From assembly GCA_951406725.2 (NCBI GenBank), contig OX597824.1, positions 58,342,001 through 58,406,000 of the forward strand: a DNA stretch of 64,000 nucleotides, in the 5' to 3' direction. This document shows positions 674-43,069 of the stretch, in pieces. Each line of letters starts with the position of its first letter. Within the stretch, counting starts at the first letter, position 1. The notes under the pieces were generated by a model. The model was not told the origin of the DNA. It saw only the letters and a program-made list of their open reading frames with translations, and searched no databases. A program made the translations under genes and the position numbers. The DNA comes from Octopus vulgaris. Its lineage: Eukaryota.

Positions 674-767
674 CGGCTAACTCTGATGAGCGTAAAGTCA
701 TGTAATTGGATTGTTACGTAACACTCCATCGTATTCTTCACACGAAACCGATAGGTAGGATCAGCCG
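674..767 (+). ncRNA. Type I hammerhead ribozyme (degenerate), PLE-associated
   Basis: CGGCT(aact)-CTGATGA(683-689)-long stem/loop II-GAA-ACC GATA GGT-A(757)-(ggatc)AGCCG. Stems I and II are imperfect. Confidence 0.6.
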
Positions 768-10321: not shown

Positions 10322-10380
<59 letters not shown>

Positions 10381-10384
<4 letters not shown>

Positions 10385-11112
10385 GGGTAATAAGAAATTA
10401 TTATTACCAGTGACTTAGCACAAAAACGAATTAGTCATTAGACTATATATTATTCCCATAGAATTACAATAAGAGGCTGCCAAATAGGAAAGCCTTGTGC
10501 TAGAAAGAGCAGTAAAAGACTCAAAACCACAAAATAAGGATAAATTTTCGAAAGAAATGAAAATTAAAAATGTTTACCATCTCAGTTATTTCCCAGACCA
10601 TGGTTTCTAACTATTTCCAGCAAAAAAAAAAGGCTTTCCTATTTGGAAGCCTCTTATTGTATTTCTATGTGAATAATATATAGTCTAATGACTAATTCGT
10701 TTTTGTGCTAGGCCACTAGTAATAATAATTTCTTATTACCCTATTATTATTTATTATGTTTAAATATTCTCTGATAAATTTGTTCGAAATTTTTACCGGC
10801 ATCCTCTCTGTCGCCGGGTATAATCTGCGTCTGCGCAGTGGTCTAAAGTTAGAATATACAAGCAGTTAGCTTTACATATGGCTGTGTTGTGTATTTGAAA
10901 TCGAAAGGCTGTCCCAGATGAAACTGGCCTTCAGCAAATATTTTTTTTGCTGGAAATAGTTAGAAACTATGGTCTGGGAAATAACTGAGATGGTAGACGT
11001 TTTTAATTTTCATTCCTTTCGAAAATTTATCTTTATTTGGTGGTTTTGAGTCTTCTACTGCTCATTCTAGCACAAGGCTTTCCTATTTGGAAGCCTCTTA
11101 TTGTATTTCTAT
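10381..11112 (+). mobile_element. Non-coding PLE-pLTR/retrozyme-like element with inverted arm, in (TA)n
   Basis: A 444-nt unit (10631-11074) is followed by a 38-nt direct repeat of its start (11075-11112). 10381-10630 is the reverse complement of the unit end joined to the unit start. Contains an HHR-like motif and has (TA)n on both flanks. Confidence 0.75.
10912..10979 (+). ncRNA. Hammerhead-like motif with defective core
   Basis: TCCCA-GATGA-AACTG[TTCAGCAAA..TTTGCTGGA hairpin]TAGTT-A-GAA-ACTATGGT-C-TGGGA. The inverted arm carries the perfect palindrome ACCATGGT. The core lacks CT relative to CTGATGA. Confidence 0.55.
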
Positions 11113-11274
11113 ATATATATATATATATTTGTAGCAAGTTGATTCCATACTAGTTTTGTTTGAAGAAACTTGAGGATCATTGGTCACGTATATCTTCCCC
11201 AATATATTAGTGACATTTAGTGGTTTCAGTCAACGACAGAGCGTATATATTCATATATGTCTGTGTGTGTGTGT

Positions 11275-11356
<82 letters not shown>

Positions 11357-11555
11357 ATGGATTTATATTTTCAATTTCATTTTCCTTTTCTGGAAAACTA
11401 AGAGGTTTTTTAAAATACTTTTTTAAAACCCGTTAAAACACTAAAAGAACTTTCAGAAGTTCATTTGTTACCTAATTCTTATTTTTATAGAACTATCACC
11501 AATGTTTCAGGAGTGTAACATCACCCCCTTAGATGTTTGGAGAACTCATGTGTTT

Positions 11556-11644
11556 TTTCGGCTGATGAGTACGGGTCACTTATATTTACTGCAATATTTG
11601 CAGCCTTAATAAAGCTGTCTTCGTACGAAACAATTGTACCGAAA
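11556..11644 (+). ncRNA. Type I hammerhead ribozyme, intact core (inverted-arm copy)
   Basis: TTTCGG-CTGATGA-GTACG[48-nt loop with CTGCAATATTTGCAG hairpin]CGTAC-GAA-ACAATTGT-A-CCGAAA. Predicted cleavage after GUA at 11638. Confidence 0.88.
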
Positions 11645-11731
11645 TATTGATCTATTCTTGTTGCTTTTTCTTATGTATATATATATATATATATATACAC
11701 ATAAGAAAAAAGCAACAAGAATAGATCAATA

Positions 11732-11820
11732 TTTCGGTACAATTGTTTCGTACGAAGACAGCTTTATTAAGGCTGCAAATATTGCAGTAAATATAAGTGA
11801 CCCGTACTCATCAGCCGAAA
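11732..11820 (-). ncRNA. Type I hammerhead ribozyme, sense to the PLE ORF
   Basis: Exact reverse complement of 11556-11644. Confidence 0.88.
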
Positions 11821-12961
11821 AAACACACGAGTTCTCCAAACATCTAAGGGGGTGATGTTACACTCCTGAAACATTGGTGATAGTTCTATAAAAATAAGAA
11901 TTAGGTAACAAATGGACTTCTGAAAGTTCTTTTAGTGTTTTAACGGGTTTTAGTGTTTTAACGGGTTTTAAAAAAGTATTTTAAAAAACCTCTTAGTTTT
12001 CCAGAAAATGAAAATGAAATTGAAAATATAAATCCATCCATATTGAAGAAAGTTTGAATTCTGGAGATATAAGGAGAGGTATCATACTCACAGAATATGC
12101 ATTTATCCATAATTAGTCCATAATAAAGTGTGTTTCCTGATGTGTGATGATATATATTGGTTACCTTTCTGAGAATTTCTTCAAACTGCTATGTTAGAAA
12201 TTTGTTGAAGGAGGGTTAGTGAAGTGTGGAGACATTCCCTCACATAGGGTATATTAGAGTAACTAAGAGGGGAAGGGGATGTAATTGTCCAACTATGTAG
12301 AGTAGTTTATTTCAGTGGAGACGAATTGACTAAACAGAATTTGCAAGAATCAAAGAGCTTTGAGGAGGAATGCTAATCTTGACCAAATATCATCGTTAAT
12401 TGCTATATAAGGAGGATATGGGAAGGTAAAGAAGAGTCAAAGGTTGTCACTATAGGAAAAAAGATTAACAGATTTCAGTGCAAAACTAGAAAGGAAGTTA
12501 TTTAATTAATTTCTTTATTTATTAATGTTACTACTAATAATACGATGGCATACTTTAGGATTACATTAAGGGGTCAAAAGAAAGGATTGTGAGTTGTTTT
12601 TCATAATGAAAAAACGTTATATTATTTTTATGGGATTAGCAATATTTACTAGTAGTATATAAAAGAACTACGAAGTCTAATTAATTAATTAACTAATTTG
12701 CTATAAGTTGGATTACCTACATTAGATAAAAAAATTAGATAGAATTAATTTAAATTATTTATATAGCCTATTAGAATGAAAATTTATTTGTAACTAATTT
12801 ATTTCTTTATGTTTCAAACCTGGTACAATTAGAGAGAAAATAACCATAGCCCATGAGCCCGTAGCTATCTAATTAAATATATAATATATAATATATAAGA
12901 GTATTGCATTATTAGTATAAGCAAGATAGAAAAATCACAAAATGATTGTTATATACTGTTA

Positions 12962-15490
12962 TCATTTTAAATATTTTAGAGTCTTAGTCCTAGCGTGAAT
13001 ACAAGAGAGAGCCAGTTCTATACGGTTATTCAATAAATTTTCATTTCTTCTATGCATTAGTATTTCAAATGTTTCCATGGAGCAAAGTTGACAACCAACT
13101 CTGCTATTTTTATAAGGTATTGCTTTCCTAACTAATTCCCAATTAAGGTTATACTTAATATTACTGTTTTTTAGTTCCCAGATCTTACTTGAAAGTGTGG
13201 TGCTATCAGCTTTATGAGGTAATTTGAAAGAAGAGAGATGATTACTAATACGTTTCTTAAAATTTATAGTACACCCTAAATAAATATATTTGTTATTCTC
13301 TGTGGTTATGGTACATTTATTGATTACGTTATTTAACCCGCATAGACCAGGTGCCGGGCATTTTGATCTAATTCTACAGTTACACCTAGGGGGGTCATTT
13401 TCTGATGAGGAATTACTCAAGGATAGATGTCTCATATTACTGCTATTCAAAACATTCTGAGTATATTTTACGTTATTATGGTTACTGTTGCTATCTAAAA
13501 TAGTGTTATCGTTATTATAGTTAATGTTGTTATCTAAAGCAGTATTATCATTTGTCGGTCTTTCTACACTATCATTTAATTCTATAGTCCTACCATAATT
13601 ACTAACATTATTGGTATTGCTACTATTATTGCCAGTATTAGTTTCTAAAAGCATACTGTTACTATAGATATCATTGTTGTCTTCATTCTCGGTATTTTCC
13701 CTATTGATATTATTCATATTATTAACATAATTGTTTCTATTTGTATTATTATTATTTCTAGCTATTCTATGGCTATTGGTTATACCTATGTTATGATAGT
13801 TATTATTATTATTGTGGCTATTATTACTTTCGGTAATGTTACTACAATTGCCATTTGTATTCCTAATGTTATTATTTAAATTTTTTTCTGGCTAGTTTAA
13901 TGTTATTATTATTGATCTTAGCTATTAAAGTGGACATATTTGGGAGGGTTGAATAAGAAATTCTGACCGTTTTTTTAGAAATAATTTTATGATATCTATG
14001 GGAGGTTGGGAAGTTCTTTTCCAGAATTATTTTGAATCTACTCTGAATATCCGATAGAATCGCACAGTTGAAAGGAATATTTAACCACATTATATCCTTC
14101 TTATTAAATTTCCTAGAATTAGAATTGGGGTTAGTTGAATCATTCCTATTTTCACCAGAGTCGTTGTATATATTAATGTTCCTATTTGCATGCCTCTTTG
14201 CATTATCTAAATTTATCTTATCCGTATTAACTATGTTCTGGTCTATGTTCTTATCATTATTCCTATTTTCATTTAGATTTGTTGTCATCGTAAATCTACT
14301 TCTACTTTTATTTCTGGTGTGATCTCTATTGTTGTTTACGTGGCTATTGTTACTACTTTTATTAGGAATATGTAAGTTCTCTTTATCAATGTTACTAATT
14401 TCATGTTTCTTTGTTTTATCTAAAATTATCCTATCCGAGTTACCTGTGTTTTGGTCTATGTTCTTATCTTTGTTCTCATTTCTATTTAGATTTGATGTCA
14501 CATTAAATCTATCTACTTCTACTTTTATTTCTGGCGTGATCACTATTGTTGTTTACGTAGTTATTGTTACTTCTTTTATTAGGAATATGTAAGTTCTCTT
14601 TTTCAATAAAGGTAATTTTTTGGTTGTATCCTGCCTTAGATAACGCCGCATTATAATGCTCTGAATGGGAGTTAAATATATCAAAATTGGATGATAATTT
14701 AGATTCTTAGGGAAATATTTCTAACCACGATTTAATTATATTTGGAGGATGATTGGATAATTTATTTACGTAACTAGTGATTTCACCTTCCTTTCTAAAT
14801 GGGTAATGTAGCTTAGAGTTAAGGTCTAAAGTAATATCTAGGAAATTGACTATTTTAGTGCCTGGTTCATAGGTTATGCTAAGGTTGAAATCTTTAAAGA
14901 ACCTATTAATTTTCTTTCTAATCCTTTCAATGTTCGATTTATTATTACTAGGGATAACAAACAAAGCATCATCTCTATATAGACCACTTTGTAATTCAGG
15001 GATCTCCTTTTTTATGCATTTTAAAAGATATGCGCCTACTAAATTAGTCACCTCAGCCGAATCACTGGAGCCCATGGGTATATCGAAATTATTAGGGGTA
15101 TCTGCTCTGGTCCATAATTTTCCCTCAAACTCTATAAATGTTTTTCTAGCTAAGAGTACAATGTCTATTTCCTCTCTAGATATGAGGGAGCGATTCATAG
15201 CGAATATTTAAAAGAATAGGGGAAATACTAGAGTAATAGTTGTTTATGTCAAATTGAATAAAGGCCAGATTATTAGTATTGGTTAGGGGGTTAAACCATT
15301 TTAATACCTCATCGGTATTTATCCATAGACTTAAGGGAAGAAGCGGGGTTATTTGGGGTAGAACAATATCAAGGATAGATTTACTAAGTCGGCCAATATC
15401 TGACTTAAGCTTTACCGACGGGTTTTCCATGAAATTCCTTTTGTGATTAATCCTAGGTTCACACGGTATAAGCAGTTCTGTTCTATCCGT
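12962..15490 (-). pseudogene. PLE RT-GIY-YIG polyprotein broken by small indels
   Basis: Track ORFs 15176-15490, 14707-15198, 13872-14543 and 12962-13717 join via small indels, e.g. one extra A in an A7 run at 13881-13887. Confidence 0.88.
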
Positions 15491-42250: not shown

Positions 42251-43069
42251 ACAGAATGGGTGATGTAGCCCCAAATACAAATGTGTATGACATATAATGT
42301 AATCTTGGATACATGCATAGATAATGTATTCCCAGAAACACACACACACGCACGCACGCACACACATATACACATATCTATACATCCAAATTGAGGGAAT
42401 GGAACGGATAAAATGCAGGCTACATACGTTTCTTAGCTACCTGATCGTCTGATGCAACAATTACTCAACAAGAGAGCTCAACTTAGTTAATCATCAGGCC
42501 GAGATTACCATAATTAAATGAAGGTTATATTTTATGCTTGCAATTTTCAAGTTAACTCGCAGCAGATGTGGATGACCTTGTAGAGAGACCAGTGGTAAAC
42601 ACACGCACTTATGAAATAATGAGTCCTTGGTGAAAGCTAATTCATCCTTTCACTGGTCTAAATGTTTGCAACTGAATGGATAGTTGCTAAATACAAAGAA
42701 CTCTCAGGGAACAGTGCTAAACAGAGCTACTCATTAGGACTAATCTGATGAGAATTTCGTTTTTAACTACAGATTTTCTAGATGAGAGCTGACTTTTGGC
42801 AGCAACAAAGTTCTAGAATTAACAAACTGTTGGCCATCAGATTCACCACTCTCATATATTCTTATATCTTAAGTGTCTTACCCGTAAAGCCTTATGCAAG
42901 TTAGCTTACCTTAAGTAATGTCCTCTTAACTAAAAACCATGTGGAAACCCTCATTCTATCCACAATGAGTTACTGTTTTCCTGTGTCCACCTTAATCAAG
43001 CTGACTTAAGATTAAGGTTTTTCTAGCCTTGACCATTTTAAGTATATTTTATTGCAAGAATCTTTCTTT

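Follow-up and report, generated by a model that had tools for sequence, protein, structure and literature searches.

Organization of the window locus

The locus studied here lies in a 64,000-nt stretch of the Octopus vulgaris genome (the window), and it raises the question of how a short hammerhead-bearing repeat came to lie in a (TA)n microsatellite beside an inverted copy that reads directly through the junction between the end and the start of the unit. Non-LTR retrozymes are small hammerhead ribozyme (HHR) repeats that form circRNAs and are thought to be mobilised by Penelope-like elements (PLEs), and a first-pass annotation of this DNA had proposed an element of that kind. Based on the analyses below, the locus is probably an insertion, two-armed and now decayed, of a ~453-nt hammerhead repeat of the retrozyme type that is dispersed in the genome and encodes no protein; a borrowed PLE reverse transcriptase (RT) and endonuclease likely placed it in (TA)n. 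The window locus consists of an S2 arm and an S1 arm, named after the two fixed sites at which copies of the repeat end:

10323..10380, no strand: (TA)n target microsatellite, left
10381..10629, minus strand: inverted arm, a 5'-truncated copy (unit 311-444 + 1-117) with its 3' end at the downstream fixed site S2 in (TA)n
10621..10631, no strand: head-to-head arm junction, within an A-run and coinciding with the 5' truncation point of the forward arm
10630..11112, plus strand: forward arm, one full period (444 nt) and 38-39 nt more, with its 3' end at the upstream fixed site S1 in (TA)n
10912..10979, plus strand: type I hammerhead motif, predicted to be inactive (C3-U4 deleted, loop-3 palindrome CATG changed to TATG)
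11110..11127, no strand: (TA)n target microsatellite, right

Most of the geometry given in the first-pass annotation was confirmed. The described 444-nt unit followed by its own start corresponds to positions 10630-10668 recurring at 11074-11112 (39 nt, 100% identity, spacing 444). The inverted arm (10381-10629), when reverse-complemented, equals unit 311-444 joined to unit 1-117, as had been claimed for the upstream ~250 bp, with two alignment blocks, one of 172 nt with 94.2% identity and one of 116 nt with 94.8%. This arm (~250 nt) extends ~79 nt further than the direct repeat, close to the ~75 nt noted earlier, and the layout of one S2 arm and one S1 arm fully explains that extra sequence. 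The outer ends of both arms run into (TA)n, in agreement with the locus being embedded in it, and the unit lacks an ORF as stated (no ATG frame exceeds 37 aa, and no open frame in the circularised unit exceeds 49 aa). Position 10631, which had been taken as the start of the unit, is only the truncation point of this copy, as other copies have their 5' ends at places all round the unit. Similarly, the length of 444 nt holds for the window copy and not for the family: small deletions have occurred here, and other copies have periods of ~453 or ~462 nt.

Hammerhead motif in the window copy and the family

In the forward arm, stem I is formed by TCCCA (10912-10916) and TGGGA (10975-10979), with GTC at 10972-10974, and the family cleavage site falls after 10974. 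The stem I and GUC site of the HHR-like motif reported previously were therefore found as described; its palindrome was not, as that position in the forward unit is mutated and reads ACTATGGT instead of ACCATGGT. The intact palindrome is confined to the inverted arm, where the 5' half of the ribozyme is missing. In addition, the forward copy reads TCCCA-GATGA, such that C3-U4 are gone, the sole gap of this kind among 39 aligned segments. The window locus thus has no intact hammerhead.

The question of whether CTGATGA is intact, raised with the first-pass annotation, has a divided answer: the window copy lacks C3-U4, whereas most covering segments of the family retain an intact core (57 of 72, or 39 of 52 when those chosen by the motif are set aside). 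Both stems covary between the two subfamilies of the repeat described below, stem I being TCCCA/TGGGA in one and TCCTA/TAGGA in the other, and stem II CAGCAAA/TTTGCTG and CAGTAAA/TTTACTG, respectively. The predicted minimum free energy structure of an intact copy has the hammerhead arrangement, and the palindromic loop 3 of the family resembles the dimer-active type as presented in PMC4209133. Rfam returned no hammerhead match for the window at the gathering threshold, nor for loci L003 and L093 at E<=5; Rfam matches obtained by E-value were microsatellite-driven miRNA models and were rejected. Since Rfam was silent, the ribozyme call is based on the motif and its covariation, from which the family is predicted to carry a type I hammerhead. 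The stems having stayed paired across ~20% subfamily divergence suggests that cleavage mattered.

A further feature of the unit is a TGCG..TGCGCA motif together with the B-box-like GTTCGAAA at window positions 10782-10837. Both precede the hammerhead by 80-130 nt, and sequences similar to the TGCG motif occur in subfamily B (see below) and in a more distant relative, L091. They may represent promoter elements.

A dispersed family of non-coding repeats

To place the window copy in its family, we searched the genome (2.8 Gb in 227 contigs, the window being on contig C11). A search with the unit gave 1991 first-look candidates, and among the 40 that were scored, non-self matches had 85-94% identity. 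A 26-nt motif over the end-to-start junction had 264 exact matches genome-wide, and a hammerhead-core pattern had 53 genome matches. Ninety loci were fetched (30 best BLAST matches, 20 hammerhead-selected and 40 junction-selected), and removal of four segmental duplicates on C17 left 86 for analysis. The C17 group (L017, L018, L021, L022 and L025, at 67.5-79.5 Mb) comprises five ~98%-identical segmental duplicates with one two-armed insertion common to all.

Units were 444-462 nt long, with a GC content of 32-35% and a longest ATG frame of 36-44 aa. They formed subfamily A, with a period of ~453 nt, and subfamily B (~462 nt), which is ~80% identical to A, and the two were mixed in none of 81 assigned loci; L091 is a more distant relative. 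The median pairwise distance was 6.7% in A and 12% in B. The closest pair was 2.4% apart, so no very young copies were seen among the examined loci. At L089 (C5:72487000-72494000), a two-armed insertion finishes at its 3' end with tandem repeats of a unit that an internal deletion has reduced to 165 nt.

Upstream of any arm in the 86 loci there was further unit sequence, an inverted arm or flank. An attached PLE ORF was found in none of them, and an RT + GIY-YIG ORF between pLTRs was absent in all 86 (flanks were 1.5 kb for L001-L030); among the 60 wider loci, L031-L090, five contained chance PLE protein fragments. Together with the hammerhead and the PLE-type insertion anatomy, these data agree with the earlier proposal that the element is non-autonomous, and support a non-autonomous, non-coding family with a closed tandem period. 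Assembled contigs of four runs presumed to be RNA cover the family patchily, and a further placement of contigs on the window gave nothing more; such contigs can show neither strand, ends, level nor circles. In the papers searched, there was no description of this hammerhead repeat family, and a term search of the main text of an octopus repeat-annotation paper (PMC13282606) gave no mention of ribozymes.

Two fixed 3' ends and the pairing of arms

The 5' ends of the arms were scattered all round the unit, whereas the 3' ends clustered at two sites ~90 nt apart, S1 near unit 36 in A and S2 near unit 120-130. Both sites were given wide intervals, since the ends pass gradually into AT-rich DNA. 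There were 46 head-to-head pairs, of which 8 had an arm ending at neither S1 nor S2. Both ends were classifiable in 38, and 35 of these combined S1 with S2 (expected 0.50, p=3e-8), the exceptions being two S1+S1 pairs and one S2+S2 pair. The junctions lacked intervening TA, and most gaps were within a few nt. The S1 arm reached further 5' than the S2 arm in 18 of the 35 S1+S2 pairs. Fold-back copying can produce neither the window arm nor these 18 pairs. In the literature searched we found no count of such a one-site-per-arm rule; this quantified rule, with the coding-element control below, is a useful by-product of the locus study.

The cleavage site was crossed once by 72 of 113 arms and twice by 4, being continuous within them, which bears out the previous suggestion of a template longer than one unit. 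Crossing of this site means that the template was a circle or an uncleaved multimer. The longest arm was 804 nt, and all 130 site-assigned arms were shorter than two units. Few 5' ends lay within 12 nt of the cleavage site (8 of 60 arms in the junction-selected set, 9 of 113 overall) and formed no clear peak; larger peaks were located 56-77 and 254-275 nt upstream of the junction.

Repeats at the same locus also had polymorphic alleles in common. In subfamily A sharing was 10/11 for direct and 14/16 for inverted copies, compared to 19% between loci, and in subfamily B it was 2/8 and 15/22, respectively. This would fit one template or sister templates, with gene conversion and age structure as alternatives. 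Divergence was 5.2-5.5% within loci versus 6.3-6.9% between them, a difference that is weakly informative.

A coding Penelope-like family as a control

The neighbour of the window locus has relatives in a young coding PLE family (L103, L104 and L105 on C9, C15 and C19, and L123-L152) with ORFs of 976-1091 aa, end copies that are 98-100% alike and a tail of ~120 nt. In the full-length coding elements L104 and L105, the inverted arm passes the pLTR end and continues ~120 nt into the start of the element. Among 30 loci of this family chosen for the longer of the two ends, at the corresponding site S2', the partner arm had the shorter one, at S1', in 14 of 14 short pairs resolvable by eye; the other 16 were single-armed, ran into the ORF, were complex or left the fetched stretch. 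Reading of the inverted arm through the junction is thus general PLE behaviour in this genome.

Frangieh et al. 2024 (PMC11167929) showed that the PLE protein PAc (Anolis Poseidon) cuts both strands of its target and extends each of them. Its RT starts at two internal sites, which delimit the tail; neither site is preferred on one strand, and hammerhead cleavage is not needed in vitro. The read-through in the window is this published Penelope tail. As the coding family shows like read-through and the published tail matches it, read-through is not special evidence for a circle, and the weight that the first-pass annotation had placed on it in this respect is lost.

Both arms start at one position in L128, L145 and L150, which are among the two-armed coding copies, resulting in near-perfect palindromes. 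By eye, the unit and the coding family have a faint TCTT(A/G)TTG-like resemblance before their 3' ends.

Mechanism of insertion and nature of the template

The marks of a PLE-mobilised insertion are present in the family (5' truncation, an inverted 5' arm, a one-ended tail and a (TA)n target). The direct repeats are partial tandems, and target-site duplications are unreadable within (TA)n. In the mechanism we propose, a PLE RT-endonuclease acting in trans would cut both strands of (TA)n, one cDNA would be primed at S1 and another at S2 on an RNA longer than the unit, and the two truncated cDNAs would then be joined head to head. The RNA would be a circle or an uncleaved multimer, a circular template being possible and about as probable as the multimer.

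We give an even chance to a ~453-nt circular RNA, produced by hammerhead cleavage and ligation, with the RT reading round from both start sites. A circle would agree with the closed period and its continuous permuted 5' ends, with the passage of arms over the cleavage site and with the predicted circular fold (z -4.4 for A and -3.7 for B, against 30 shuffles each), and has precedents in mussel, coral and axolotl (PMC7229834). Rare alleles were also common to direct repeats of the same locus in 10 of 140 cases in subfamily A, versus 0.9% between loci, and at L093 a private stem-II deletion occurs in both of two cores spaced 434 nt apart, although L093 could be a local duplication. It counts against a circle that no arm attains two full units, that none of 8 dimer-spaced junction matches are adjacent, and that PAc uses unprocessed RNA with the hammerhead dispensable in vitro (PMC11167929). 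The alternative of an uncleaved linear read-through transcript of a genomic copy of 1.3-1.8 units, for which a circle is unnecessary, is a real possibility that falls somewhat short of an even chance. It accommodates the sub-dimer length of every site-assigned arm, and coding PLEs give the same ends from partial tandems; however, the source would shorten in every round unless the RT re-copies or jumps, and the persistence of paired hammerhead stems between subfamilies also speaks against it.

We regard two further explanations as very improbable. All the anatomical marks of a PLE and a coding PLE 240 bp away would suit a solo pLTR or the 3' end of a coding PLE, possibly the neighbour, but past S2 the sequence returns via the hammerhead to S1 without an ORF, no attached ORF was found in the 86 loci and the unit has no similarity to the ends of the neighbour. 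The chance PLE fragments in L031-L090 indicate that adjacency means little. In the 86 loci, the earlier reading of the unit as something other than a pLTR survived. A DNA-level fold-back or inverted duplication at (TA)n, or two independent insertions in one microsatellite, could draw on the alleles common to both arms and on (TA)n being an insertion hotspot. However, the window arm contains unit 39-117 past the junction, which is not contiguous in the forward arm, and independent insertions would not yield S1+S2 in 35 of 38 pairs or junctions without intervening TA.

Returning to a PLE acting in trans, we tentatively suggest, as a reading that is less likely to be right than wrong, that a PLE dimer sits on one RNA with one RT start site for each (TA)n strand, and that this RNA is the 453-nt hammerhead circle read round from both sites. 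Three of the 38 pairs are against the one-site-per-arm rule, and no coding partner was identified among the families compared. If the pairing of sites is as suggested, the anti-correlation in 35 of 38 pairs, repeated in the coding family, would be a genomic record of that step, and the rule predicts paired-end products in the PAc in vitro assay. These results bear on two open mechanistic questions, namely the origin of the PLE tail and inverted arms, and whether retrozymes move via RNA circles. The family itself is a poor experimental handle, because it is old and the window copy is dead.

Comparison with known systems

Cervera and de la Pena 2020 (PMC7229834) defined non-LTR retrozymes and showed their circRNAs, and Li, Clavereau and Pollet 2026 (10.64898/2026.07.22.740005) linked retrozymes to pLTRs. 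As in the animal non-LTR retrozymes presented in these two papers, the octopus unit is non-coding, of low GC content (32-35%) and a few hundred nt long, with a type I hammerhead, a short palindromic helix III, a self-paired predicted fold and PLEs in the same genome. In contrast to them, the octopus insertions are dispersed and sub-dimer and do not form arrays of many units (though families rich in monomers are among those of Li et al.), stem II is long, self-cleavage is predicted and a circRNA is a possibility, and a parent PLE was not found.

The criterion of Li et al. 2026 (10.64898/2026.07.22.740005) for an active element is at least two consecutive complete hammerheads in a head-to-tail tandem. 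Two complete cores were present at L093, whereas the window locus does not have two consecutive hammerheads. An exact two-core pattern at normal spacing had no matches genome-wide, and no long tandem arrays were found with exact-match patterns, which miss decayed arrays, the junction matches listed being the first 100 of 264. Of what the first-pass annotation had expected of other copies, the permuted 5' ends and the lack of an attached ORF were thus observed and long arrays were not.

For PLEs, Craig et al. 2021 (PMC8557442) described copies in partial tandem, with a truncated copy lying inverted beside them and a tail of 30-40 bp that is often one-ended; Arkhipova et al. 2013 (PMC3846280) described the same insertion anatomy. 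The octopus insertions resemble those EN+ PLE insertions in being 5'-truncated and partly tandem, in having at the 5' end an inverted copy that is itself 5'-truncated, and in their often one-ended tail and microsatellite targets, and differ in having no ORF and a tail of ~90 nt instead of 30-40 nt. They share with PAc (PMC11167929) the two fixed 3' ends bounding the tail, an AT-rich target, extension of both strands and a predicted dimer; unlike PAc in vitro, with its lack of strand bias, the genomic pairs use one site each. Non-autonomous Chlamys PLEs such as MRC1 (PMC8557442) are similar in that they derive from PLEs, have no coding capacity and occur as pLTRs and head-to-tail copies. In that type, the 3' end resembles an autonomous partner and the clade is described as lacking canonical hammerheads, whereas the octopus unit contains a hammerhead motif and no partner was found. 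Overall, we place the window element in the PLE-mobilised, retrozyme-type class, as a genuine but unremarkable member that has decayed.

The neighbouring element and other hammerhead repeats

Downstream of the locus is a separate insertion with the following features:

11351..15487, minus strand: broken EN+ Penelope-like element with RT and C-terminal GIY-YIG
15487-14710, minus strand: RT pieces, Pfam score below the curated cut-off
within 12965-13891, minus strand: GIY-YIG piece, Pfam score below the curated cut-off
11738-11814, minus strand: hammerhead, unlike that of the unit
11562-11638, plus strand: inverted end copy with a hammerhead

This PLE, 240 bp downstream, had been suggested as the partner of the unit. 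Comparison of the unit with its ends gave scores of 33-35, against shuffle means of 35-40, and hence no similarity above shuffles, so that the suggestion was not upheld. No similarity to the unit was found in intact relatives of the neighbour, or in the L105 and L108 families, and none of the three PLE ends compared shared terminal sequence with it as an autonomous partner might. The partner search covered the family of the neighbour and one ~66%-identical RT family, with no link to the unit.

The 3' end of the neighbour is present twice (11351-12043), tail to tail round a short (TA)n, the two copies being ~99% identical barring an 18-bp tandem duplication. Both copies have one common stop site and each has an intact-looking hammerhead; the tail-to-tail arrangement is unusual compared to the common head-to-head form. 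Between RT and EN, the region 12965-14552 (minus strand) has asparagine-rich segments and a 213-bp duplication, and these N-rich inserts resemble those of the rotifer Penelopes in PMC3846280.

Loci around a second hammerhead family, in which the CATG palindrome recurs, likewise lacked an attached PLE ORF. At least one further group of non-coding hammerhead repeats was observed (L092, L095-L102 and L110-L122; period of ~350 nt in L099), sharing the palindrome GAAACCATGGTC and a basal A/A mismatch in stem II; it has inverted arms, and within the flanks fetched no PLE ORF was attached. Elsewhere in the window, hammerhead-like motifs were found by a loose pattern at 42421-42497 (minus strand) and 683-753 (plus strand), with a stem I of 3 bp only, and these may be PLE ends or chance.
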